Below, one piece after another: positions 1 through 10,491 of a stretch of DNA of 10,491 nucleotides. Where the stretch lies: IMG/VR virus record IMGVR_UViG_2690316028_000010. One strand, 5' to 3'. Source of the stretch: a virus. Taxonomy: Duplodnaviria > Heunggongvirae > Uroviricota > Caudoviricetes. The stretch's first letter is position 1; each line of letters opens with the position of its first letter. The translations under genes and the position numbers were made by a program. The notes beneath the pieces were generated by a model. It worked only from the letters and a program-made list of their open reading frames with translations, had not been told where the DNA came from and did no database searches.

Positions 1-780
1 TTATGGCCTTGTATTTCCTTTTCTTAACTTCTTTTCGCTCTTTTTTACAAGCTTAATTAACCACTCTGGCTCATCCGACAGTTCGGAGTAATAGCAGTAT
101 TCTGGTATTGCTTTCCAAAATGTTGTTATTGCATCAGCAAATTCAACAAACTGTTCTTCTGTTACATGCAGATCATCATGAGTAGGATTGATATGTCTGC
201 CGCATATACCAGTAGGATGAGGGTAATATTCTGGATGAGTTGATGATAGGAGGCGGTGAGAATTTCCATCACCATGTTTGTACACATTTACGACTAATGC
301 GCACGCTTTGAGCTTATCGCCATAATCAGTTTCATCTATCTTGAGACCGATCCACTCGAGCAGTTTCAACAGTTGATCAAAATTTAAATCCCAAACCATT
401 GGTGTAATGATCTCTTTATCACACCAATGAGACAATTCTCTGATCGTTTTTTCTCGTAACTTTTTATCGAACTGGTGATACATACCCGCAGTTACTGCCA
501 AAAGAACAGTTTCTTGCATTTCAATAAGTGACCAGACGTAGTTTACACCCTCCTCATATGCTTGCTCATAGGCTGCCATTGGGTCGTCAAAATCAGGATT
601 GAAATGCTCAGCGGTATACTCCAGAAACTGTTTCTCTCGCTCCTCCGCCTCTTGGGTCAGATCCCCAAACTGAGACAAAAGTCTCCGTCTTGCTTCCGAA
701 ACATAAAATTCGTGAGGTTCAAGAAAATAGGGCCGATCTACTTTAGCAAGCCAAAATGTCACGAAGTTATCTGATGACAT
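1..780 (-). CDS. hypothetical protein, 259 aa, AT-rich accessory gene; function unknown
   Basis: Complete ORF: ATG at 780-778 (plus 'cat'), stop TAA at 3-1. SD-like 'aagga' about 7 nt upstream on minus strand. Protein has mixed composition, not low-complexity. Local GC is clearly lower than the central block (by-eye count of the first 120 nt ~37%). No family recognised. Confidence 0.6.
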   Translation of the reverse strand: MSSDNFVTFWLAKVDRPYFLEPHEFYVSEARRRLLSQFGDLTQEAEEREKQFLEYTAEHFNPDFDDPMAAYEQAYEEGVNYVWSLIEMQETVLLAVTAGMYHQFDKKLREKTIRELSHWCDKEIITPMVWDLNFDQLLKLLEWIGLKIDETDYGDKLKACALVVNVYKHGDGNSHRLLSSTHPEYYPHPTGICGRHINPTHDDLHVTEEQFVEFADAITTFWKAIPEYCYYSELSDEPEWLIKLVKKSEKKLRKGNTRP

Positions 781-924
781 AACTTATCCTTGATAATTAT
801 TGTATGGATAGATTATCCAGAAATTTGCGAACTGAGTCGGTCATTTTTTTTTGTGTGCGCGTGATGTAATAAAGGTTCAGGAATATACTGTCAGTTTACT
901 GAAAAACTGGCAACAGAGGCGGTT
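781..924. promoter_or_regulatory. divergent intergenic region between the 259-aa gene (minus) and the 75-aa gene (plus); presumed to hold both promoters
   Basis: 144-bp AT-rich gap with a T9 run (843-851) between two outward-facing start codons. No confident -35/-10 pair could be assigned by eye. Confidence 0.3.
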
Positions 925-1152
925 ATGAGCGAGAGTTACGAGTTCTCAGCAGGTTGTTTTTTGAAGCTATCAATATCTTCAGGGTATTTCACTATCAAAA
1001 TTCAGGGAGATCTCCCCGCTCGTGCAGCTAGTGCCATCTTGGCAGATGATGTCGAGCAGGTTTTATCTCAACTAGACAAATGTTTTCAGCTGAGTAATAG
1101 GCAACGAGAAGGGATCGTTAAGTATCTTATGTCGAAGGGGATGCAGCCTTGA
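925..1152 (+). CDS. hypothetical small protein, 75 aa
   Basis: ATG at 925 preceded by SD 'agagg' (915-919). Stop TGA at 1150-1152 overlaps the next gene's ATG (TGATG), indicating translational coupling. Confidence 0.5.
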   Translation: MSESYEFSAGCFLKLSISSGYFTIKIQGDLPARAASAILADDVEQVLSQLDKCFQLSNRQREGIVKYLMSKGMQP

Positions 1153-1610
1153 TGACTTGGATCACCCAAACAGATAACTGGACAGGGATCGCGGCGTGGG
1201 CGGGTTTTGCTTTGTCCGTATTTCAATTACTAAAATCCAGAACATCGCTAAGGCTTTATCTCGGATGTGATCAGCACGAGGACAGGATATACGTTTCGAA
1301 CATAAGCGCACACGATGTAACGTTGAGTGCAGCCGGTGTGGTAACAGCCAGTGGACGCCTTAGAATGTTATCCGACGAATATTCGGACGAGAACATGATC
1401 ACACCGATGCTGCCAAAAAGATTGAAAGCACGAGACGAAATGGTCTTGAACGTGCCATTCATAAATAAGGCTCATCACAACAAAGTGCATCATCGTGGCG
1501 GGGTTTATATCAAAACATCTGACGGCAAGATGTTCAGTGATGTTTGTTGGATCAAACGCCAATGGTGGTGGTTACTGTCTGTAATACTACGAGACACAAA
1601 GCGATACTAA
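1152..1610 (+). CDS. hypothetical membrane-anchored protein, 152 aa from ATG 1152 (ORF track starts at TTG 1149)
   Basis: Start ATG 1152 overlaps upstream stop. One N-terminal hydrophobic stretch 'WTGIAAWAGFALSVFQLL' (~1182-1235) consistent with a single TM helix or signal anchor; remainder hydrophilic with a His-rich patch (HHNKVHH). Stop TAA 1608-1610. Confidence 0.5.
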   Translation: MTWITQTDNWTGIAAWAGFALSVFQLLKSRTSLRLYLGCDQHEDRIYVSNISAHDVTLSAAGVVTASGRLRMLSDEYSDENMITPMLPKRLKARDEMVLNVPFINKAHHNKVHHRGGVYIKTSDGKMFSDVCWIKRQWWWLLSVILRDTKRY

Positions 1611-1639
1611 GTTGATTGATAGTCCGAGGTGATGTTCTG

Positions 1640-1657
1640 CCCAGCGTAGTTGCTGGG
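1640..1657 (+). terminator. weak hairpin downstream of the 75/152-aa pair (6-bp stem cccagc/gctggg, 6-nt loop)
   Basis: Inverted repeat 1640-1645 / 1652-1657. No following U-tract, so at best a weak terminator or RNA structure. Confidence 0.2.
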
Positions 1658-1690
1658 TGATACACCTTCAATGATTCTTGTTAGTGTGTA

Positions 1691-1699
1691 GGGGGGGGG
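1691..1699 (+). repeat. homopolymeric G9 tract immediately upstream of the 72-aa ORF start
   Basis: Sequence 'gggggggggc' then ATG at 1701. Upstream in-frame stop TAG at 1689-1691 places the tract in the 5' UTR / ribosome-binding region, not inside coding sequence. Confidence 0.9.
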
Positions 1700-1700
1700 C

Positions 1701-1919
1701 ATGTTGGATTTTAAAGCTGAGTTTGTTGGCGGCAGCCATAGCGGCGAGGTTATATCACCGATGTCCGAGGTAGAACTTAATAAACTAGGGTATAGAGTCC
1801 ATTTACGTGGTGCCCCCTCTGGCGATGAAATGCCTGTACACGTTGTTGTACCTATTGAATGGTCAGCGGATGAAGCACACAGAGCCATAATGCAGCGCTG
1901 GGGTAAACGCAGACGGTAG
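1701..1919 (+). CDS. hypothetical small protein, 72 aa, basic C-terminus (WGKRRR)
   Basis: ATG 1701, stop TAG 1917-1919; G-rich SD-like sequence directly upstream. Composition more protein-like than the overlapping minus-strand ORF 1607-1930 (S/P/T-rich). No family recognised. Confidence 0.45.
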   Translation: MLDFKAEFVGGSHSGEVISPMSEVELNKLGYRVHLRGAPSGDEMPVHVVVPIEWSADEAHRAIMQRWGKRRR

Positions 1920-2301
1920 ATGTCGCGCATTTCTCTTAAACTGGCTGCTGTGTTTGGTGCTAATTATCCATGCAAAGTGGCCTAAGCTACGTGGAAGAAT
2001 GATCAGTTTCGCATTATTTGGTTCAAGGAGGGCTCCCCCACAGCCTCACTCTCTGAATGCAAAACAGCCCCACAATCCCACTGTTAAAAGTCCCAGCTTG
2101 AAAATTGCACGCTTATGGTTGCCCCTCCCTCAACTCTATAGCTCGCCCGCGCCCCCGTGTGCATGTGCGTGCCCGCGCGTCAGGGGTCGCTGAGAAACCC
2201 TAAGATTTTGCTCATCCGAGACAAGCATTACCTGCACCTGTAAAACGCGAAATTACCTCTCAAACACCACACATAAACCCACTTTGCATTGAGATCTGAC
2301 A
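1920..2301. other. ~380-bp GC-rich, apparently non-coding spacer with C-rich runs and an alternating purine-pyrimidine tract
   Basis: Only ORF here (1954-2193) is Pro/Ala/Arg-rich and low-complexity. Contains 'gcccgcgc' twice (2146-2153, 2171-2178) flanking 'gtgtgcatgtgcgtg' (2157-2171). Sits upstream of the capsid-like operon. Confidence 0.4.
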
Positions 2302-2649
2302 ATGACCTTACTGACACCTGAAAACGTGGCAGCGGCTAGGGCTGCCCGTAGCGCGAGGATTGAACACTGGAAAGCCAACGCCAGCCAGCTTAAGCAGGAC
2401 TTTGCTGACGAAGCGCACTGGCGGCGGCTCGCCTCACGCTTCGGCGTGCGTATGCCCTCGGCGTATGTTCCCGGCTCCGAGCTGCGATTGCTGCGCCGGG
2501 CGGCCAAACGCGCGGGCATCTCTGGTGCTGATATGCGCGATGCTTTTGGTGGGGGCGTTGCGCACCTGCACGAGCTTAATCCCCATTGGCCTGCCTTCGC
2601 GCTTATCGGCCTGATTCTTGAGATCGCGGCTGAAAAAGCTGCTGCCTGA
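2302..2649 (+). CDS. hypothetical protein, 115 aa, Ala/Arg-rich with hydrophobic C-terminus; first gene of the capsid-like operon
   Basis: ATG 2302, stop TGA 2647-2649. Codon third positions G/C-biased, consistent with real coding in this GC-rich block. Function not recognised; a small scaffold or packaging-associated protein are possibilities only. Confidence 0.5.
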   Translation: MTLLTPENVAAARAARSARIEHWKANASQLKQDFADEAHWRRLASRFGVRMPSAYVPGSELRLLRRAAKRAGISGADMRDAFGGGVAHLHELNPHWPAFALIGLILEIAAEKAAA

Positions 2650-2717
2650 TTCATCCCATTCTCTTTTCCCCTTTTCCATAAATCGCGCTGGCTAACGCTG
2701 GCGCGGGAGCTATTTCT

Positions 2718-3713
2718 ATGACTGACAATGTTTATACCCCTGACCAATTCCGCCCGCACTGGGGCGGTGTAGATGCTGACAACGACATTCACATTGAAGC
2801 GTATGACCGGGACGTTCAGACCCGCCTTGAGGCAAAGAGCGTGTTTCTCGCCGAGGGGCTGAGCACATACAAGCCGCTGAAAAACAGTAATCAGTATCGT
2901 GTAGACCGCCTGAGCGGAGATCTGGAGGTGAAGGGCAGAACCGCAGGGCAATCGCTGGAGCCTACCGCCGTTAAGTCGGACAAGCTGATTATCTCTGTGG
3001 ATACGCTGAGCTATATCCGCATCCCGATTGACTATCAAGACGACTGGACAGCGCCCACCTTTCGCGCAGAGCTGAGCCGCAACATGGGGACAGCCCATGC
3101 AAAGTTCTACGACGAAGCGCACACTATCCAGCTAATCAAAGCGACTGACTTTGTACCGCCGCCTACGTTGCAACCAACGTTTAACCCGCTGACGGATAAT
3201 GTTGTCTCGCTCGACCTGACAACGGGGAGCGAAGAGGATGCGGCTAACGAACTGGTTCACGCTATTAAAGCTGCTGTTAATCGATTCCTAACTGAAAAAG
3301 ATATTCCGGTGGCGGAGCTGTGCCTTCTCATCGACCCAGCTTGGTTCAGCATCCTGATGGAACATAAGAAGTTGATGAACGTCCGTTACAGCCGGGATAG
3401 TGGCAATGATTACGCATGGCGTCGCGTTGGCTATGTCGCTGGGGTGCGAGTTATTGAGCTGAACAGTTACCCGCAGGAAGCCATTACCGCGCATGAACTG
3501 GGCGCTGATTATGATGTGACCGCAGGGGAAGCGCTGACACGGGCGACGCTGTTCCGGCCTGCGTCTGTACTTGTGACAGTCGAAGCGCAGAGCGTTATCA
3601 ATCGCCAGTGGGATGATGAACGCGAAATGACAATGGTGATGGACTCATATCGCCTGTTCAATGTTGGGCTGCGCCGCCCTGACTGCGTTATAAATTTCCG
3701 ACAAGCTGCATAA
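2718..3713 (+). CDS. putative phage major capsid protein (HK97-fold / T7 gp10-like), 331 aa
   Basis: ATG 2718 with SD 'gggag' ~8 nt upstream; stop TAA 3711-3713. Several segments resemble T7-type capsid proteins from memory (e.g. 'IPVAELCLLIDPAWFSILM', C-terminal 'GLRRPDCVINFR'). Followed 17 nt later by an HNH gene, a common capsid-module neighbour. Similarity is by recall, not alignment. Confidence 0.5.
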   Translation: MTDNVYTPDQFRPHWGGVDADNDIHIEAYDRDVQTRLEAKSVFLAEGLSTYKPLKNSNQYRVDRLSGDLEVKGRTAGQSLEPTAVKSDKLIISVDTLSYIRIPIDYQDDWTAPTFRAELSRNMGTAHAKFYDEAHTIQLIKATDFVPPPTLQPTFNPLTDNVVSLDLTTGSEEDAANELVHAIKAAVNRFLTEKDIPVAELCLLIDPAWFSILMEHKKLMNVRYSRDSGNDYAWRRVGYVAGVRVIELNSYPQEAITAHELGADYDVTAGEALTRATLFRPASVLVTVEAQSVINRQWDDEREMTMVMDSYRLFNVGLRRPDCVINFRQAA

Positions 3714-3729
3714 CAAAAGGGGCCGAGCC

Positions 3730-4161
3730 ATGAATATTGATGCTTATGCCCCGGAGCTGTTGCGCTCTTTGTTTCGGTACGATGCGAAGACTGGCCGCCT
3801 GTTCCATGCAGTAGACCGGATCGGAGCCAACAAGCGGATTTACGCTAAAGCCGGGGAACTGGCCGACACGGTAACGGACAGCGCCGGATATAGGCGCGTA
3901 TCTGTCCGCATCAATGGCAAATCTCATGCGCTATACGCCCACCGTGTCGCCTTCATCATTGCTAATGACGGTATCCCTGCCGGGATGCAAATCGACCATA
4001 TCAACGCGGTACGCGATGACAACCGCCTTATCAATCTCCGCACGGTTACGCCACAAGAGAACCAGCACAATTACCGCAAAGCCAAGGGTTATAGCCACCA
4101 TGCCTGCTCTGGCAGATGGGAGGCTTACATTCGCGTTGGTGATCCACCGCGCGATAAATAA
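3730..4161 (+). CDS. HNH endonuclease (HNH_3-type, phage-associated), 143 aa
   Basis: ATG 3730 with SD 'aaagggg'; stop TAA 4159-4161. Clear HNH signature 'IDHINAVRDDNRLINLRTVTPQENQHN' and the N-terminal 'GYRRVSVRINGKSHALYAHRVAFI' pattern typical of this family. Confidence 0.85.
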   Translation: MNIDAYAPELLRSLFRYDAKTGRLFHAVDRIGANKRIYAKAGELADTVTDSAGYRRVSVRINGKSHALYAHRVAFIIANDGIPAGMQIDHINAVRDDNRLINLRTVTPQENQHNYRKAKGYSHHACSGRWEAYIRVGDPPRDK

Positions 4162-4200
4162 GCCGCAATCCGTGAGATAAATGGACACGGTGCGGCTTTT
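4161..4200. terminator. bidirectional intrinsic terminator candidate between convergent HNH and tape-measure genes
   Basis: Imperfect hairpin: 'agccgca' (4161-4167) pairs with 'tgcggct' (4191-4197), inner stem 'ccgtg'/'cacgg', followed by TTTT (4197-4200) on plus strand and an A/T-rich run on the other side. Lies in the 66-bp gap between the two converging stop codons. Confidence 0.5.
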
Positions 4201-4227
4201 CAGATACTGCAAAGGAATTACAGATTA

Positions 4228-6711
4228 TCAGTCGTAAGCAACCCGGCGCTTACGGGCAAGGATAGCTTCCAGTGCTCTTTCAATCTCAGGAATGGACAGC
4301 TTAAGCGCATTGGCCACATCCGGTGCTGGTGACTTGTTCTTGCCATCAATATAGATATTGTTAATGACGTTAATCCCGCCGCCTGCGCCTGCTGGTGAAT
4401 GAGAGTCCCGGCCTCTGGGTAAGGTAAGGTCGCCGCGCATATAGCGCTCTAATACGGGGGGTACTTTCGGCACATCCGGCACCATCATATCAGCCAGCCG
4501 CGAGGAGGCTTTCAGCGCCAGTGATGCAGACTGACCAATGCCAATCGCCGCCCCTTCTGCGATATTAGACCCGAAGCCCATAAATACACGGCTTGGCGAG
4601 TGAATCCCCAGCTTTTCCTTGAACCAGCCGCCGACACTGTCACCCATCTCAGTGACGGTATTCTTGAGAGACTCCCACTTGTTTTTGATACCGTTCACCA
4701 GTCCATCAATCAAGTGACCACCAAACTCAGTAAACTGGCCGGGAAGGTCGATGTTAAACCACTTCATGACCCCCGCAAACGCCTTGTAGAACAGCCCCAG
4801 CGGCGACCAGTTCAGGATTAGCTTACTGACACCAAGAACCCCGCCGTTAAAGGCTGTTTTCACTTCCTCCCACCGCTGCGAGAACCATCGGCTTATCGCG
4901 CCCCAGTTGCGGTAAATCAGGTACGCGCCCCCGGCGATGATGGTTATCGCAATGCCTATGGGGTTCATTAACAGCGCCCTGCCAAACCAGAGGAAAGCCT
5001 TTGCCACCACCATTACGCCTCTGAACAGTCCACCCGCCAGCGCTTTACCCAGCATTCCGGCTCCCTTCGCCACGGTACTGAATCCGGTAGCCAGCCAGCG
5101 CAGCTTTCCGCCGTCGCTCAGGGCGGTTTTGAGCAACAGCCAGTTAGTGCGCAGCAGTACGGCGTTTTTCCACAACCCGGCGAACGGTGATACCAGCAGA
5201 TTCAGGCCGAGTTTCAGCCCGACAGTGGCGATTTTCAGCCCCAGCAGTACGCCCACGGTTTTTGCCACACCCTGAACAATGCCGGGATGTTGCGCTATCC
5301 ATTGCCCGGTGGAATGAATCAGCGGAATCAGTTGCTGCGTCATTGACACGAACGAGGGAGACAGTTGACTGCCAAGGGTAATGGACAGTTCGCGGGTGCT
5401 GACCATCAGTGCTTTGGTCGCCTCCAGCGGCGATTTCAGTCGCTCCGTGTAGGAGGAGGCCAGCAGGTCTTTATCCGCCGCCTTAAGTGCGCCAGCCCTG
5501 ATTTCGCGGTATTTGTCCATGTTGGCGAGCATCGGACGGACAAACGCCATGACCTGCATATCGGCGAACATCTCACCCAGACCGAAATTCTTTGCCAGTT
5601 CCTGTAACGCAAGGTCGCGGGAGTTATCGTCCTTGATTTTCATTGCTTTCTTGAAGCCTGCCAGTGCTTCCGGGCTTTTGGCCTCCAGATACCTGCCCAT
5701 GACGCTTATCATGCCCTCAATGGGCGAGACGCCAGCAGATTTATAAGCCATGAGTGACCCCTGAAGGTCAATCCCGATATCGGCAAACTGTTTCTGCGTG
5801 TCGCGGGCAAAAATCTTGGTGAGGAAGTTACGGAAGTTGTTACCAGCCTCGTCAGATGACCCGGCACCAATTCGGGCAATCTGTAAACTCGCTCCGATTT
5901 CCGCCATCGCTTCTTTACCTTCGGCAATACCGCGCATCATCGGGGCAAGAGATGGCATCCATTTCACCTGGTCAGGTATTTCAAAAGACCCTTGGTCGCC
6001 TGCAAAGGCCATGATGTTCTGTACTTTGGCAAACTCTTTAGCGCTGCCATCCATCGAGTTTTTCCAGACGGCGGCAACCTTCGCCCATTCCGTCCCTGTG
6101 GTGCGTGTGGCAGTAGCGGCGCGGGCTATATTGGGCATGAAGCTGCCAATTTCGGACACACTGTCGATATTGTCACTGATAAGCGAGCCTACGGCGTCCT
6201 GTAAGTCGCTCTGGTACTGGTTGTACTTGAGCGACCATCCCCGGATTTGCTGCCCCAGACTGGCGCGGGTTTTATCGTCATATTTCGCCGTGATCGACAT
6301 ATCAATCATCTTGTCGTCGAACGTAGCCGACTGCTGAATCGCCGGGGAAACGAGGCTGTAAGCGGCTTTGGCCTGCGCCCACGTCTCAATTCCCTGTCCA
6401 TAAAGCGCCATCCGGTTAGCTCTCAGGGCATCGGTTGTGGCAGACGCTGCCGACAGGCGGGACTGCTGGCGGTTTAGTTGCTCCAGCGTTCTGCCTACCC
6501 GTTGCAGGTCATTGTTCAGGCGTGAGGCCACGCCTGAACCTACCTGACCGTAACGCTGCATGGCGCGTGACAGGCTGCTTTGTTGCTCGGTCAGGCGGCG
6601 TGACGTGTCGCCGAGAGAATCAAGCGCCCGCCGTGTGCCGCTGACGGCGGAACGGAAGCTGCTCCCGACAATACCGCCAATCATCACACCAACAGAAAAA
6701 TTATTGCTCAT
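4228..6711 (-). CDS. phage tail tape-measure protein, 827 aa
   Basis: ATG 6711-6709 with SD 'ggagtg'; stop at 4228. Helical N-terminal region, long central Gly/Ala/Leu-rich hydrophobic segment, and C-terminal 'GIHSPSRVF'-type motif that I recall from tape-measure proteins. Size is typical. Confidence 0.75.
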   Translation of the reverse strand: MSNNFSVGVMIGGIVGSSFRSAVSGTRRALDSLGDTSRRLTEQQSSLSRAMQRYGQVGSGVASRLNNDLQRVGRTLEQLNRQQSRLSAASATTDALRANRMALYGQGIETWAQAKAAYSLVSPAIQQSATFDDKMIDMSITAKYDDKTRASLGQQIRGWSLKYNQYQSDLQDAVGSLISDNIDSVSEIGSFMPNIARAATATRTTGTEWAKVAAVWKNSMDGSAKEFAKVQNIMAFAGDQGSFEIPDQVKWMPSLAPMMRGIAEGKEAMAEIGASLQIARIGAGSSDEAGNNFRNFLTKIFARDTQKQFADIGIDLQGSLMAYKSAGVSPIEGMISVMGRYLEAKSPEALAGFKKAMKIKDDNSRDLALQELAKNFGLGEMFADMQVMAFVRPMLANMDKYREIRAGALKAADKDLLASSYTERLKSPLEATKALMVSTRELSITLGSQLSPSFVSMTQQLIPLIHSTGQWIAQHPGIVQGVAKTVGVLLGLKIATVGLKLGLNLLVSPFAGLWKNAVLLRTNWLLLKTALSDGGKLRWLATGFSTVAKGAGMLGKALAGGLFRGVMVVAKAFLWFGRALLMNPIGIAITIIAGGAYLIYRNWGAISRWFSQRWEEVKTAFNGGVLGVSKLILNWSPLGLFYKAFAGVMKWFNIDLPGQFTEFGGHLIDGLVNGIKNKWESLKNTVTEMGDSVGGWFKEKLGIHSPSRVFMGFGSNIAEGAAIGIGQSASLALKASSRLADMMVPDVPKVPPVLERYMRGDLTLPRGRDSHSPAGAGGGINVINNIYIDGKNKSPAPDVANALKLSIPEIERALEAILARKRRVAYD

Positions 6712-6742
6712 GGTTCACTCCGGTTGAGTGGTTCGGTGGGCG

Positions 6743-7336
6743 TCATTCAGTCAGGGACAGGCCGCTGATTCCGGTAATCCCGGCAATTTCTTCGCTGACG
6801 GCTGCCAGTTCACTTTCAAGCCCGGTGCGTTCGCTGACCAGTGCCGCCACGGTCTTACGGCGCTCTGCCAGTGAGGGAAGTTTGTCATTACCCCACGTCA
6901 CGCTCTTATCCTTCTTAAGCGCTTCGGTCAGTCGGGTGGCGACCACATCCGGGAAGAAAAAGCAGAGCTTGCGCATTACCGCCATCCCGGTATCAGCCGG
7001 GGGGACGTTTCCTCCCAGCCCCACCAGACGGAACAGACCGGAAATATCGCCGTTCTCATTTTCCAGATTGCCCCAGCGTTCGGCGTTCCCTTCACCGCCG
7101 GAACCGTTGCAAAGAGCACGCTTGAATGACTGATATTCTTCCTGCCCGAATCGCTCAATATATTCAGGAATAAAGGAACAGTAATCATTAAGTGATAACG
7201 GCATATCCTGTAATGCGGTTATTTCGCCATTAATATCACCAATGCGACGAGAGAGCTTTTCTTTCTGCTCATTCAGGGAGGTAAGGTTATTTTTAACGGC
7301 GTTCAGTGCTTCAATGAGGGAAATAACAGGTTTCAT
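6743..7336 (-). CDS. hypothetical protein, 197 aa, coiled-coil-like N- and C-termini; possible scaffold-like or tail-assembly accessory protein
   Basis: ATG 7336-7334 lies 1 nt after the upstream gene's TAA (taaAATG) with SD 'ggag' inside the upstream gene's 3' end; stop TGA 6745-6743. Heptad-like ends; no slippery heptamer seen at the 3' end. Confidence 0.5.
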   Translation of the reverse strand: MKPVISLIEALNAVKNNLTSLNEQKEKLSRRIGDINGEITALQDMPLSLNDYCSFIPEYIERFGQEEYQSFKRALCNGSGGEGNAERWGNLENENGDISGLFRLVGLGGNVPPADTGMAVMRKLCFFFPDVVATRLTEALKKDKSVTWGNDKLPSLAERRKTVAALVSERTGLESELAAVSEEIAGITGISGLSLTE

Positions 7337-7337
7337 T

Positions 7338-7952
7338 TTAATAACTCCAGATAAAAGGTGTAGTGAGGGTGAGCGCTTCGGAATAGGAGACGTTGCAGGC
7401 TTCGCTTACATCCTTTATTAAAAGGTGCTGCGCTGCCCTCTGGCTGTCGGCTATGCCGTCGAGCTCTGAGAAATAAACGTGTGATTCATTGTGACCAAAA
7501 CAAACCGGGTAAGCGCTTTCCATAAACTCCACCTGCTCAAGCCCCTTTACGGCTGGCGGCTGTGCGCCGAGAAAACCAATATGGCGAAGATACCAGGCAC
7601 CAGTTCCGGCCGGGTTACGCGCTTCTCCCGGCCTGTAGAAAGCGGCAGACACTTTTTTATATAGACCTGACTGAACCATATCCAGCAACCTGTTATCAGG
7701 CTTAACCAGCGCGAAAAGTCTGCCGTTTTTACTTATCAGTCCGGTGGTTTCACCATAGGCGGGACTGTTACTGGCCGGATGCCCCAGGCACAGCGGCGCA
7801 CCATAACCCGCGCGATGATAGCCGTTATAGGCTGCTGCCATGTTGTCGATATCCTCGTCGGAAAAGCTGATTTCCTGCCCCGCCATCGCGGTATGTGTTC
7901 CCGCCCGGAATATCTCAATAGTTTTCCAGTTACCAATATTGATATCTGTCAT
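7338..7952 (-). CDS. putative GPO-family prohead protease / capsid scaffolding protein, N-terminal protease-like domain, 204 aa
   Basis: ATG 7952-7950; stop TAA 7340-7338. Recalled resemblance to P2 gpO N-terminus: 'FRAGTHTAMAGQEISFSDEDIDNMAAAY' vs gpO 'FRIGVEGDTCDGRVISAQDIQEMAETF', and 'LCLGH' vs gpO 'INLEH'. Shorter than P2 gpO (~284 aa). Confidence 0.55.
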   Translation of the reverse strand: MTDINIGNWKTIEIFRAGTHTAMAGQEISFSDEDIDNMAAAYNGYHRAGYGAPLCLGHPASNSPAYGETTGLISKNGRLFALVKPDNRLLDMVQSGLYKKVSAAFYRPGEARNPAGTGAWYLRHIGFLGAQPPAVKGLEQVEFMESAYPVCFGHNESHVYFSELDGIADSQRAAQHLLIKDVSEACNVSYSEALTLTTPFIWSY

Positions 7953-7953
7953 T

Positions 7954-8481
7954 TTATATTTGTCCCTGTTTCATATCGCGGCACTCTTTGTTTTTCTTAC
8001 GCTCGGCGGCAATAATCTGATAAATCCACTGAATAGAATTGCCATATTTCCTGGCTAATTCCCGATGAGTCATCCCTTGTTTGTAATCGGAAAATATCCT
8101 GGCATTTCTGTCGAAAGAGTTTCTGGCTGCGCCATTAGGTATATAGAAATTGTTACCTTTAAAGACCCTTCTAAGGTGTTCTGTAATTTCCGGGGAAATG
8201 ATTTCGGCCTGAGCCGAAAAGCAATGTATTGTAAGCAAAGCCTGCGCTATCACACCTGTAAGCTCATGCAGAAAAGATGTTGCTTTAGGGGCGTCTTCAC
8301 ATTCTATTGGCATGTAATTCTGGCAACCACCAAGATTATCAGATATATGCAAAACAATTTTATTTGCTGCACTACTTGCCTGAAGTTGTGAATAGCCCGC
8401 ATCAGTCAGAAAATCTTCAATCGCATCCCCCATTTCCCCCAGAGTGTCAGATGTTGCGTACAATCCCTCTCTTGTAATCAT
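7954..8481 (-). CDS. Mor/C-family transcriptional activator (Mu middle/late activator family), ~175 aa from ATG 8481
   Basis: C-terminal region matches the Mor pattern: 'NFYIPNGAARNSF' (cf. Mor 'QVYIPRG'), 'RIFSDYKQGMTHRELARKYGNSIQWIYQIIAAERKK' (HTH). ATG 8481-8479 has SD 'gagg' ~7 nt upstream; the ORF-track start at 8487 is a GTG too close to the SD. Stop TAA 7956-7954, 1 nt before the next gene's start. Confidence 0.75.
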   Translation of the reverse strand: MITREGLYATSDTLGEMGDAIEDFLTDAGYSQLQASSAANKIVLHISDNLGGCQNYMPIECEDAPKATSFLHELTGVIAQALLTIHCFSAQAEIISPEITEHLRRVFKGNNFYIPNGAARNSFDRNARIFSDYKQGMTHRELARKYGNSIQWIYQIIAAERKKNKECRDMKQGQI

Positions 8482-8509
8482 AATCACACCTCGGTAATGA
8501 TAAAGATGT

Positions 8510-8614
8510 GCGCTAAAAAGGCTTTATAAAGCTTTATGAGGCGTCTTTCTGGTGACAAATCAGCACATACACCATTAACGCTTTAAAATGGCTTACAGGC
8601 TTTTTTAGCGCGGG
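8510..8614. promoter_or_regulatory. regulatory region upstream of the Mor-like gene: 12-bp palindrome, tandem 'gctttat' and flanking 10-bp inverted repeats
   Basis: 'ataaagctttat' perfect palindrome at 8526-8537; 'gctttat' at 8521-8527 and 8531-8537. 'gcgctaaaaa' (8510-8519) is the inverse of 'tttttagcgc' (8602-8611). Promoter hexamers not confidently assigned. Confidence 0.35.
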
Positions 8615-8681
8615 TTACTAATGTGGATTAAGAATATGGTTTTGGGGCGGGGATGTTTTTTAATGTACTTTAGATATGAAG

Positions 8682-8703
8682 AAGCCCCTCAGAGGAGGGG
8701 CTT
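8682..8703. terminator. GC-rich hairpin (9-bp stem, 4-nt loop) immediately downstream of the 96-aa gene; candidate intrinsic terminator
   Basis: 'aagcccctc' (8682-8690) pairs perfectly with 'gaggggctt' (8695-8703), loop 'agag'. Sits 17 nt past the TAA at 8722-8720; the flanking run on the minus-strand transcript is only moderately U-rich. Confidence 0.45.
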
Positions 8704-8719
8704 GCGGGATTACGCCAGA

Positions 8720-9010
8720 TTATTGAGGTCGTCTGTCTTTCCTCAATCCATCAAGTAGCGCCATGGCATCAGTAACCAGTATGCCAGCAGCATCCGTAAC
8801 CATCGAAACATCAGAGGATGCACATGATTTATCCATACCTAATGTTGACGCAAAATCAAGTAGCTTACGAACTGCGTCAAGTCGATAGGTGGCAGAGTCG
8901 TAAATTAACTCCTGATTAGCATCAGTCTTTAAAAACATAATATCATCAGAGGCACCTTGCGAAAATGACGGCATCGCACGGAAAGTATTTTGAGTTTCAG
9001 CCTGTTTCAT
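8720..9010 (-). CDS. hypothetical protein, 96 aa
   Basis: ATG 9010-9008 overlaps the upstream gene's TGA (ATGA, coupling); SD 'ggagg' ~8 nt upstream; stop TAA 8722-8720. Confidence 0.5.
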   Translation of the reverse strand: MKQAETQNTFRAMPSFSQGASDDIMFLKTDANQELIYDSATYRLDAVRKLLDFASTLGMDKSCASSDVSMVTDAAGILVTDAMALLDGLRKDRRPQ

Positions 9011-9744
9011 TGTGCAGTCCTCCGGCTAATAGCGAATTTATTATAAACTTCATAACTGGCAGCATTCAGTCCGGGGTTGTATTTATCAGCCAGAGCACAG
9101 GCAATCATATGTTCAATAAATTTTGTTATTGCGTTAAGTTCAGTTTCGTTTGAATAACGCAATGCCACTTTGAGTAACTCGCGGCAATATTGTTTTTTAT
9201 TCCCTTCGATTTGGCCTGATTTTTTTATTCCTGCCTTTTTATCTGATTCATCCTCAACAGGCAAAGATGGGATATCCTCTTTATTGGTTAGCGTTCTTTC
9301 GCAAATAATATCTTCACCAGATTGAATTACGCGCTGCAACTCTCTGGCGCTCATACGAAGAATATCATCAAGCGTGTGGTCGTTATATGCCCCACCACTG
9401 GCAAGGAGATCCAGTGTCACTTCATCCAGCCGGGCAAGCAGGTTTAACTTCGTTTTGCCGATACTTGTTTTGGCAATTGCGGCTCGGGGGGTATTGGTTA
9501 CGCCAAATATCAGAGCAACCCGCATAGCATTATGGGCTTCACGTTTATTAATTCCCCCCACTGAAAGCGCCTTTGCAAATTCCTCATTTGTTTTTGTTGC
9601 TTCCTTAAGTGCCAGCATCTCTTTACCACGATGCACTAAAGTTTCAGTCGGGGTTGGCAAAAGGAGTACAGCATCTAAAATTTTTTCCCGAAGTACATCA
9701 ACTTGGCTTGCGATGCATGAACGGTTAGACTTGTTGATACCCAT
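9007..9744 (-). CDS. hypothetical protein, ~245 aa from ATG 9744 (ORF track begins at TTG 9765); candidate early/regulatory protein
   Basis: ATG 9744-9742 preceded by SD 'gagga' ~9 nt upstream; stop TGA 9009-9007. Acidic/Lys-rich linker mid-protein; no P-loop or other catalytic motif recognised. Divergent from the RHH gene. Confidence 0.5.
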   Translation of the reverse strand: MGINKSNRSCIASQVDVLREKILDAVLLLPTPTETLVHRGKEMLALKEATKTNEEFAKALSVGGINKREAHNAMRVALIFGVTNTPRAAIAKTSIGKTKLNLLARLDEVTLDLLASGGAYNDHTLDDILRMSARELQRVIQSGEDIICERTLTNKEDIPSLPVEDESDKKAGIKKSGQIEGNKKQYCRELLKVALRYSNETELNAITKFIEHMIACALADKYNPGLNAASYEVYNKFAISRRTAQ

Positions 9745-9774
9745 GATTGTTATCCTCAATAACAATGGTGGTCA

Positions 9775-9809
9775 GGCAGGATGTGATACTGAACCTATCA
9801 TGTCCTGCC
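9775..9809. promoter_or_regulatory. imperfect dyad symmetry (13-bp arms, 11/13 matching, 9-bp spacer) upstream of the 245-aa gene
   Basis: 'ggcaggatgtgat' (9775-9787) vs 'atcatgtcctgcc' (9797-9809). Could be an operator or a 5'-UTR hairpin of the minus-strand transcript. Confidence 0.3.
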
Positions 9810-9840
9810 GCTTGCGGTTTTACATCTACTTAATGTAATG

Positions 9841-9877
9841 TACGTACCATTGATTTCAATCTAAACAATGGTACGTA
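9841..9877. promoter_or_regulatory. perfect 12-bp inverted repeat with 13-bp spacer (candidate operator) overlapping the RHH gene start codon
   Basis: 'tacgtaccattg' (9841-9852) and its exact reverse complement 'caatggtacgta' (9866-9877). The right arm covers the ATG at 9868-9870. Located in the divergent promoter region. Confidence 0.55.
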
Positions 9878-10071
9878 TCATGTCAAGAGTAAAAGATAAC
9901 ACGCCTAAAAATTCCGCAGGGCGTTCCCCGACCTTCCAAATACGTATTACACCTGAACTTAGGGAACAGCTTGATAAAGAAGCTCTTAAAGATGGTGTAA
10001 GTTTGGCCAATTGGCTCAAAGGCATTGCACGAGATGAACTACGCAGGAGAGGTATTTCTCCAAAAGGGTAG
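9868..10071 (+). CDS. ribbon-helix-helix (Arc/MetJ-like) DNA-binding protein, 67 aa; putative repressor
   Basis: 'FQIRITPELREQLDKEALKDGVSLANWLKGIARDEL' fits the RHH beta-strand plus two helices (cf. Arc 'FNLRWPREVLDLVRKVAEENGRSVNSEIYQRVMESF'). ATG 9868 (alternative ATG 9880), both with weak SD; stop TAG 10069-10071. Confidence 0.6.
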   Translation: MVRIMSRVKDNTPKNSAGRSPTFQIRITPELREQLDKEALKDGVSLANWLKGIARDELRRRGISPKG

Positions 10072-10086
10072 GGCTAATCAGGTACA

Positions 10087-10476
10087 AAAAGCGAAAACGT
10101 TTTCGCTTTTATGGCTAAGAGAGCGGATGCACTCATTAAAGCGGACAGCGCTGTCCGCCTCCAATCAGCAAAAAAACAAGATGGTTCCTCCAAAACGCTC
10201 AACGTTGAGCGTTACGTTATTCCGACAAAAGCGCAGGCGCTTGCGCTTTTGAAAGGGATCAACACGGCTTTCAAACCGGACAACGTTGACCGCTTTAAGG
10301 AATCACTGTCGGCTGAGCAAAAACGGCAAGCGCTTGCCGTTTTAGATTCGCGGGGCGGTAAACGTTTACCGTTCTGTGTCAATTATGTTCAAAAGCGAAA
10401 GCGCTTTCGCATTTTCTCACCTAAAGCGGCAAACCTCCTCTGTCTTAGCTGGAAAAACGACATCGCTGTCGTTTTT
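10087..10476. repeat. array of eight hairpin-capable palindromes of one family (A-tract, CG-rich core, T-tract)
   Basis: P1 10087-10110 aaaagcgaaaac|gttttcgctttt (perfect, 24 bp); P2 10141-10158 gcggacagc|gctgtccgc (perfect); P3 10194-10213 aacgctcaac|gttgagcgtt (perfect); P4 10227-10250 (1 mismatch); P5 10320-10343 aaaacggcaagc|gcttgccgtttt (perfect); P6 10356-10371 cggtaaac|gtttaccg (perfect); P7 10391-10414 (1 mismatch); P8 10453-10476 aaaaacgaca-tcgc-tgtcgttttt. Symmetry kept while sequence differs between copies. Confidence 0.85.
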
Positions 10477-10491
10477 AATCCGAGGTTCTAA
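10111..10491 (+). CDS. ORF of 126 aa overlapping the palindrome array; coding status doubtful
   Basis: ATG 10111 directly after palindrome P1, stop TAA 10489-10491 at window end. Repeated peptide motifs (KAQALALL, KRQALAVL, KRKRFRIF) are direct consequences of the DNA palindromes, so the frame may be open by chance. Confidence 0.3.
   Translation: MAKRADALIKADSAVRLQSAKKQDGSSKTLNVERYVIPTKAQALALLKGINTAFKPDNVDRFKESLSAEQKRQALAVLDSRGGKRLPFCVNYVQKRKRFRIFSPKAANLLCLSWKNDIAVVFNPRF

Follow-up and report, generated by a model that had tools for sequence, protein, structure and literature searches.

A short prohead-type protease and its helical partner as a candidate capsid-assembly module in satellites of Mu-like phages

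Described systems and the gene pair

Satellites that redirect the capsid assembly of a helper phage do so with devices that are unrelated to one another, namely Sid, CpmAB, Ccm and TcaP. In the satellite P4 a late operon (sid-delta-psu) combines a transactivator gene with genes for capsid size and decoration, and we know of no protease encoded by P4. Laboratory mini-Mu elements are derivatives of phage Mu that have Mu-type ends and no transposase, and that need the transposase of a helper. Here we analyzed two adjacent minus-strand genes, encoding proteins of 204 and 197 amino acids (aa), in a 10,491-nucleotide (nt) stretch of DNA from a tailed-phage record (Caudoviricetes; IMG/VR record IMGVR_UViG_2690316028_000010), the whole of which is called the window below. 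The two genes lie in a 7,862-bp mobile element, and we lean towards the view that satellites of Mu-like (BcepMu-type) phages use the pair, as the core of a capsid-assembly module, to exploit a helper.

Two described satellites come closest. SaPI1 carries a gene pair, encoding CpmA and CpmB, whose members always occur together, and CpmB mimics the C-terminal capsid-binding motif of the helper scaffold and competes with it for the same site (PMC6893505). The pair described here resembles CpmA/CpmB in traveling together and in that the 204-aa protein keeps the helper's C-terminal motif, just as CpmB copies that of the helper scaffold; unlike CpmA/CpmB, to which no sequence or fold relation was found, it has a motif bearer that is also a predicted protease, and it is found in Gram-negative hosts with transposable helpers. 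PmCI172 of Pasteurella multocida is a 7.8-kb phage-inducible chromosomal island (PICI) with a Mu-like myophage helper, and it yields heads of ~38 nm as against ~55-60 nm for the phage (PMC6092414); the authors could not name the PmCI172 genes behind the small capsids (PMC6092414). The protease of the PmCI172 helper belongs to the family of our 204-aa protein, with which it shares 42.6% identity. The element in the window is like PmCI172 in size and in its presumed Mu-like helper, and Neisseria islands that carry the pair resemble PmCI172 in their integrase/AlpA backbone and in size. The two differ in their mode of insertion, as a tyrosine recombinase integrates PmCI172, and the element in the window, which has no recombinase, is bounded by ends of the Mu type.

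The features of the pair, with the evidence for each, are as follows.

7338-7952, minus strand: gene of the 204-aa protein, which looks like a scaffold-less prohead protease ("mini protease-scaffold"); open reading frame (ORF).
6743-7336, minus strand: gene of the 197-aa protein, a helical partner protein of a stand-alone ~190-aa family; ORF.
7334-7348, minus strand: coupling junction, with GGAG at 7348-7345, TAA at 7340-7338, a 1-nt spacer and ATG at 7336-7334; direct sequence reading.
7548-7925, minus strand: assemblin-fold protease domain, residues ~10-135; AlphaFold2 model, fold match and invariant residues.
7779-7781, 7647-7649 and 7581-7583, minus strand: candidate catalytic residues His58, Ser102 and His124, respectively; invariance and order.
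7362-7451, minus strand: C-terminal helix-turn-helix motif, residues 168-197, ADSQRAAQHLLIKDVSEACNVSYSEALTLT; hidden Markov model (HMM) and AlphaFold2 model, common to the extreme C-terminus of phage-type protease-scaffolds.

The short protease and its helical partner

The 204-aa protein was matched by the PHROGs family phrog_976 ("head maturation protease") with an E-value of 1.2e-46, over profile positions 31-173 of 415 only, and its predicted structure was found to resemble the assemblin or prohead serine protease fold of herpesvirus proteases and T4 gp21; the initial annotation of the window, which had called the protein protease-like, is borne out by both results. The AlphaFold2 model (predicted local distance difference test, pLDDT, 85; predicted template modeling score, pTM, 0.82) consists of a beta-rich domain at residues 10-130 (pLDDT >90), a disordered linker at 135-167 and a C-terminal helix-turn-helix at 171-202. 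Three residues, His58, Ser102 and His124, were invariant across 53-55 diverse family members, and they follow one another in the order of the assemblin His-Ser-His triad. We infer from this candidate triad that the 204-aa protein is a serine protease.

Searches of Pfam, also at E<=10, gave no match for either protein of the pair, and thus none to Phage_GPO for the 204-aa protein; NCBIfam and PADLOC gave none either, and neither did sequence searches of the PDB with each protein singly and with the protease-family profile. The same annotation had also called the protein GPO-like, after P2 gpO, which is made up of an N-terminal protease and a C-terminal scaffold. BLASTP of the 204-aa protein against P2 gpO gave an E-value of 0.4, and a profile of the protease family aligned weakly with gpO residues 1-145 (hhalign probability 74%, E 2.9e-5). 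What is left of that label is a relation that appears to be remote and carries no family assignment, given the profile link on the one side and the missing Phage_GPO match on the other.

Homologs of the 204-aa protein (263 in all) fall into short forms of ~180-250 aa and long forms of 290-356 aa, with residues ~10-150 as the region common to them. Those in the phage collection are head proteases of Mu-like transposable phages, among them BcepMu gp32 and the proteins of RcapMu, of Pseudomonas and Burkholderia phages, of KP12 (Klebsiella), of PhiKM (Escherichia) and of AFS-2018a (Pasteurella). Identity to the BcepMu, KP12 and PhiKM proteins was 42-46%, and against residues 4-134 of the 371-aa PhiKM protein it was 46% (E 8e-35). 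In KP12 and PhiKM the long protease gene (365-371 aa) is located directly upstream of the major capsid gene. The 204-aa protein thus has in common with the BcepMu-like protease-scaffolds (BcepMu gp32, KP12_269, the PhiKM 371-aa protein and phrog_976) the protease domain, the His/Ser/His residues and a C-terminal motif of ~30 residues, but differs from them in that a ~190-residue core is absent, in that no major capsid gene comes next, and in that it is encoded by a 7.9-kb element rather than by a phage.

The C-terminal motif emerged from an alignment of short and long forms, in which the long forms consist of the protease domain, a linker, a coiled-coil or scaffold region and a terminal motif, D-P-x-R-L-x-L-H...G-I-S-Y-x-x-A, while the short forms pass from the protease domain to the terminal motif, in one or two copies. 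An HMM of the C-terminus of the phage-type proteins matched many short forms with E-values of 1e-10 to 1e-4. After one iteration, made without the group to which the window's protein belongs, it matched residues 168-197 of the 204-aa protein in register at E 0.0023, as compared with E 0.011 for the best of 1,560 shuffles in the same test. The two C-terminal helices of the AlphaFold2 model (171-186 and 190-202, pLDDT ~90-95) coincide with this stretch.

What is missing from the 204-aa protein, by the same alignment, is the central scaffold or coiled-coil core of ~190 residues. The protein therefore does not have the full-length phrog_976 architecture (~290-415 aa, scaffold region included), nor is the Phage_GPO layout found here, in which protease and scaffold are parts of one polypeptide encoded upstream of a major capsid gene. 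Since the C-terminal motif of the fused proteins is kept, the 204-aa protein looks, at the level of its sequence, like the product of an internal deletion and not of a split, that is, like a protease-scaffold minus its ~190-residue scaffold core. The initial annotation was right to see in the protein the protease portion of a family of protease-scaffolds, whose full-length members (290-371 aa) reach well past it; its statement that the protein covers only the N-terminal portion has to be amended, as residues 168-197 match the C-terminal motif of the full-length proteins. In P22, in 80alpha/CpmB and in P2 gpO the C-terminal tip of the scaffold serves as a capsid-docking element. By analogy, the tip that the 204-aa protein has kept is a candidate docking element, expected to bind the inner face of the capsid protein.

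The partner protein gave far fewer leads. Its AlphaFold2 model is all-helical (pLDDT 75), with long terminal helices at residues 7-43 and 156-188 flanking a conserved helical core that bears the motifs MPLSLxDYC, LCFFFP and WGN...P..AERR; the earlier description of the protein as coiled-coil-rich fits the terminal helices and leaves out the core that they surround. Foldseek comparison of the model with the PDB and BFVD returned unspecific coiled-coil matches only (best E ~0.2-0.3), no Pfam or PHROGs family consistently matched 65 diverse members of the 197-aa family, and none of 50,697 phage records was matched when the 197-aa protein was used as a tblastn query. A word-index search found 34 relatives, all in Enterobacterales, of 113-229 aa and none of them fused, and an HMM scan of 1.84 billion representative sequences found 138 clusters, in which nearly all full-length matches were of ~170-275 aa. 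One protein of 4,900 aa was considered as a fused form and set aside; it was matched in 21 short stretches and looks like a spurious coiled-coil match.

The two ORFs and the taaAATG junction between them, with its 1-nt spacer, agree in coordinates and letters with the initial annotation. On the minus strand the stop codon of the 204-aa gene (TAA, 7340-7338) is followed by a single A (7337) and by the ATG of the 197-aa gene (7336-7334), and GGAG at 7348-7345 lies 8 nt ahead of this ATG. The spacer varies from 1 to ~31 nt in relatives, so that a length of 1 nt is not conserved, and in one relative (L038) a 65-aa ORF separates the two genes. Such a 1-nt spacer is commonplace in phage operons; the coupling is real and by itself unremarkable. 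Both genes are under purifying selection, as comparison with variants 89-98% identical in nucleotides gave ratios of nonsynonymous to synonymous substitution (dN/dS) of 0.06-0.20 (204-aa gene) and 0.12-0.25 (197-aa gene).

The proposal that had been attached to this junction was that an ancestral protease-scaffold had been split into two coupled genes, the 197-aa protein being a diverged scaffold half with a normal scaffold job. It is in keeping with the scaffold half that follows the protease domain in full-length relatives and with the helical make-up and long terminal helices of the 197-aa protein, and scaffolds diverge so fast that missing sequence similarity alone is not decisive. The comparisons nevertheless went against it. 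BLAST of the 197-aa protein against the PhiKM protease-scaffold gave E 4.1, and nothing below E 0.4 against other long forms, while hhalign comparison of the 197-aa family with the scaffold halves in long-form proteases gave a probability of 2.6%, i.e., no relation. The C-terminal tip of the fused proteins sits on the 204-aa protein and not on the 197-aa protein; no fused form was found, neither among the 34 word-index matches nor among the 138 HMM clusters, the one long match being likely spurious; the 197-aa family is absent from the phage collection (by tblastn) and from PHROGs; and the pair is not followed by a capsid gene, nor does the element contain one. Neither homology to a phage scaffold nor a place between the protease and major capsid genes of a phage was found for the 197-aa protein. 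We consider a split gene improbable on these grounds. A scaffold-like or size-determining role, suggested by analogy, is the leading guess for the function of the 197-aa protein.

Recurrence of the pair and the element that carries it

The association of the two families was scored with HMMs of both in 14 element types; for retrieval of loci a narrower alignment of the 197-aa family was used, the diverse 65-sequence alignment having proved too divergent. The results showed that a 197-family gene lies immediately downstream of the short protease gene in 12 of the 14 types, with one small ORF in between in L038, and that, in most related elements that were examined, the pair comes after a Mor gene. 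Those elements that could be delimited measure ~7-12 kb, and none examined has a complete set of virion genes.

The backbones on which the pair recurs are very different. Transposon-like elements of Enterobacterales without a transposase carry it with and without a tape-measure gene. In Pectobacterium the order is Mor, 203 aa, 201 aa and tape measure, and in Pseudomonas leptonychotis it is Mor, 246 aa and 191 aa. Islands of Neisseria weaveri and related metagenomic islands have integrase, AlpA, Mu Gam and Mor genes, then the pair (244 aa and 196-213 aa), then primase and DUF927 genes. The pair is also carried by mini-Mu elements with MuA, MuB, GemA and Mor (from a metagenome and from Salmonella), by an element with integrase, Gam and Mor, by one with Mor and a tape measure, and by a P4-like backbone of integrase, Ash-family protein and alpha-type primase. 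MuA and MuB are present in the related elements L021-L023. In one element the gene right after the 197-family member is a homolog of the head-decoration family Phage_cement_2. HMMs detected no member of the 197-aa family in KP12 and PhiKM, which are phages of the helper type. A short protease in a genuine Mu-like phage contig (L037) was considered as a phage-borne split gene and rejected, as the gene calls were fragmented with a match in a second frame, for which frameshift errors are the likeliest explanation.

These arrangements invite comparison with P4. Mor and the pair would be analogous to the P4 late operon, to which one relative adds a cement gene and another a P4-like backbone; on the other side, the 197-aa protein was not matched by any PHROG family (E<=0.001) or, in the phage collection, by any P4-like record, no direct comparison with Sid having been made.

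The element in the window contains the following features besides the pair.

4140-4190, no strand assigned: end of the element, TGATCCACCGCGCGATAAATAAGCCGCAATCCGTGAGATAAATGG...; the match to six copies inserted independently breaks off at 4138-4140.
4228-6711, minus strand: tape measure protein, 827 aa, accessory cargo of this variant; PhageMin_Tail, E 5e-20.
7954-8487, minus strand: Mor-family transcription activator, first of the gene string; Pfam Mor, E 1.7e-25, residues 69-168.
8720-9010, minus strand: 96-aa ORF, an upstream gene of the element.
9007-9765, minus strand: DUF3102-like gene, a 252-aa ORF (245 aa as called in related loci); phrog_1748, E 1.7e-20.

The genes for Mor, the 204-aa protein, the 197-aa protein and the tape measure form a single string, all on the minus strand, in which TAAAATG occurs again at the junction of the Mor and 204-aa genes (7956-7950) and a gap of 31 nt separates the 197-aa gene from the tape-measure gene. 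The latter proximity is what favors the alternative that the 197-aa protein serves in tail assembly as a chaperone of the tape measure encoded downstream; a tail chaperone had also been raised by the initial annotation. Pfam and PHROGs gave no match to a tail assembly chaperone family, and linkage to a tape measure is not obligatory: the pair is present without one in Neisseria, in Salmonella, in several metagenomic elements and in a variant from ST131-type E. coli, which has the Mor, 204-aa and 197-aa genes and no tape-measure gene, and in a Pseudomonas island the tape measure has its own Phage_TAC_7 gene elsewhere. A chaperone role is thus very improbable. The tape measure of the element is 47% identical over its full length to that of KP12 (821 aa) and 71% identical to residues 1-699 of the 983-aa tape measure of a PhiKM-like prophage, than which it is ~156 residues shorter.

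Positions 4140-10491 of the window share 99.7% identity with the corresponding part of an element of 7,862 bp that was found at many unrelated chromosomal sites, including between narJ and narI, in recQ, in a lambdoid prophage and in ynbC of E. coli AW1.7. The element extends ~1.5 kb past the window. Near-identical copies share 99.6-99.8% identity, plasmids of Enterobacter and Citrobacter carry more divergent copies (88-93% identity over window positions ~4140-10320), and the gene order is the same in all copies. The element starts with TGATTAGACATGAGATAAATA... and ends with ...GCGCGGTGGATCA, so that it has TG...CA ends, and it is flanked by a 6-bp direct repeat that differed at each of six insertion sites. 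No transposase or integrase gene was called in it, and no capsid, portal or large terminase gene. In its TG...CA ends, short target duplication and many sites it is thus an element of the Mu/BcepMu type, without MuA and MuB of its own.

A PhiKM-like prophage of E. coli 4/1-1 (37,045 bp) also has TG...CA ends, with a 6-bp duplication, GAAGAA. The two ends of the element matched the cognate ends of this prophage at 55/73 and 54/74 positions, the second figure being for the 4140 end against the fibre-side end, as compared with 39-41 in the non-cognate pairings. Homologs in the PhiKM-like prophage were found for five of the nine element genes, i.e., those for a small-terminase-like fragment, the DUF3102-like protein (36% identity to the DUF3102 protein of the prophage), Mor, the short protease and the tape measure. 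The element has the hallmarks of a phage satellite, being small and devoid of most virion genes while containing helper-related regulatory and assembly genes, and it is probably a transposon-like satellite that depends on a PhiKM-like helper. Among 5,426 complete E. coli genomes the gene pair was present in 33, three of which have two copies, and PhiKM-like prophages were present in 643. With laboratory mini-Mu the element has in common Mu-type ends, target duplications, many insertion sites and the lack of a transposase; in contrast to mini-Mu, it is natural, is found in several Enterobacterales genera and carries a regulator, the pair, a small-terminase-like fragment and a tape measure.

An element without capsid, portal, large terminase and transposase genes might also be taken for a decayed Mu-like prophage, of which the pair would be functionless debris. 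Such debris would hardly be expected to keep intact ORFs under purifying selection, to be inserted at many sites in nearly identical copies that each made a target duplication, to be carried in several Enterobacterales genera and on plasmids, or to hold the same pair on unrelated backbones, and we regard decay as barely credible.

Further observations concern other parts of the element. The Mor proteins of the satellites (175-177 aa) have an N-terminal extension of ~65 residues relative to helper Mor (129 aa). Between the 96-aa ORF and the Mor gene there is a gap of 232 nt (8488-8719). On the minus strand a terminator-like hairpin lies within it (8697-8685), and its upstream edge is overlapped by a weak promoter-like site (8746-8719); a helper-activated promoter of the string of Mor, 204-aa, 197-aa and tape-measure genes could be located in this gap. 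Outside the window, ~140 bp short of the element's other end, lies a Mu gp27-like gene (114 aa; L002, 5476-5820, minus strand). The similarity of its product to the DUF3486 small-terminase-like protein of the helper (181 aa) is confined to the N-terminal 67 residues of the latter. The product would be a second truncated copy of a helper protein and possibly redirects or blocks packaging. Palindromes of 24 nt, AAAAGCGnnAGCGCTnnCGCTTTT, occur at six sites in window positions 10087-10476 (12 strand matches against 0.15 expected). In the whole element the array (L002, 6577-7251) continues past the window and comprises at least 12 sites, ~50-160 bp apart, and a 126-aa ORF overlaps with it. Such an array may bind a protein, in the manner of an operator, enhancer, pac or partition-like site. 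Contigs of 7,799, 7,860 and 7,904 bp, practically as long as the element, turned up repeatedly as assemblies of their own in metagenomes and IMG/VR. Assemblies of this size are what heterogeneous flanks within a sample would give, and hint at multiple insertion sites or packaged copies.

The remainder of the window, positions 1-4139, belongs to another mobile element. This is a small integrative island that has genes for a helicase and a tyrosine integrase, and it includes the following.

2718-3713, plus strand: major-capsid homolog, outside the 7,862-bp element; phrog_267.
3730-4161, plus strand: HNH gene, part of the integrative island.

The intact HNH protein has 175 aa in E. coli NCTC11023, and in the window the Mu-type element has inserted in the 3' end of its gene at 4140, so that one satellite-like element is nested inside another. 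The capsid gene was considered as part of the module of the pair and rejected, since the element ends at 4140 and the capsid and HNH genes belong to the other island. With the only capsid gene in its vicinity outside the element, the locus of the pair is not the head module of a phage.

Readings of the pair

Taken as the core of a helper-exploitation module, as we favor, the pair might work as follows. The Mor operon of the satellite would express both genes, the 197-aa protein, which is specific to satellites, being made in step with the 204-aa protein. The retained C-terminal motif would bring the short protease into helper procapsids, where it would provide maturation cleavage without the size-setting scaffold core, and for the 197-aa protein two parts are proposed, that of an alternative scaffold or size factor and that of a protein that sequesters the helper scaffold. 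The outcome would be small capsids that fit the 7.9-kb element, at the cost of the helper. Because the element lacks a transposase and has helper-like ends, the helper would also transpose it, and would probably package it. The computed results behind this reading are the fold, the homology, the loss of a domain, synteny on unrelated backbones, the element ends, the target duplications, the insertion sites and purifying selection, and from them we infer helper dependence, procapsid targeting, protease activity and an effect on capsid size. A more specific version, in which the pair is a capsid-size redirection system of satellites of Mu-like phages, PmCI172-type PICIs included, and the window element is a natural transposable satellite that borrows its helper's transposase to replicate and its helper's virion to be transferred, we put forward only tentatively.

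Several points weigh against the favored reading. Mobilization, packaging, localization in procapsids, proteolysis and small capsids are predictions here. The match of the C-terminal motif is weak for the 204-aa protein itself (E 0.0023 as against 0.011 for the best shuffle), and the model of the 197-aa protein is of moderate confidence (pLDDT 75, with residues 78-112 poor) and has a helical shape that matches nothing specific. The short-protease elements L022 and L039 have no detectable 197-family gene. Known satellites that redirect capsid size are typically about one-third the size of their helpers, and 7.9 kb is smaller than that.

The protease fold, the kept C-terminal motif and the missing scaffold core fit also with a module that interferes with the helper and does nothing else. 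By this account the scaffold-less protease would dock on the helper capsid protein and, acting in a dominant-negative way or prematurely, would wreck the heads, with the 197-aa protein as its regulator, inhibitor or chaperone and with capsid size unchanged; the element's truncated DUF3486-like protein (matching 67 residues of the helper's) suggests that decoys could be a general strategy. Interference of this kind would not obviously need strict pairing with a ~190-aa partner across very different backbones. In addition, the head-decoration homolog beside the pair in one relative points to the building of particles and not to blocking, the delimited elements are small (~7-12 kb) and would gain from small capsids, and no PADLOC defense family was matched. 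We therefore think interference alone, the main rival of the favored reading, rather unlikely.

In the literature covered, which leaves most subscription journals aside, we found no account of satellites of Mu/BcepMu-type phages that carry the pair, and no description of natural Mu-type satellites without a transposase or of a transposase-borrowing satellite lifestyle. The pair is a marker for diverse small elements in Enterobacterales, Neisseria, Pseudomonas and metagenomes, and a directly testable candidate for the cause of small capsids in satellites of Mu-like helpers. If the favored reading is true, the design would be a new one, a helper protease-scaffold from which the scaffold core has been removed and which is coupled to a new helical protein. 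At least one element that bears the pair has helper-like ends and no transposase, which suggests that there are satellites that exploit both the transposition and the packaging of transposable phages.

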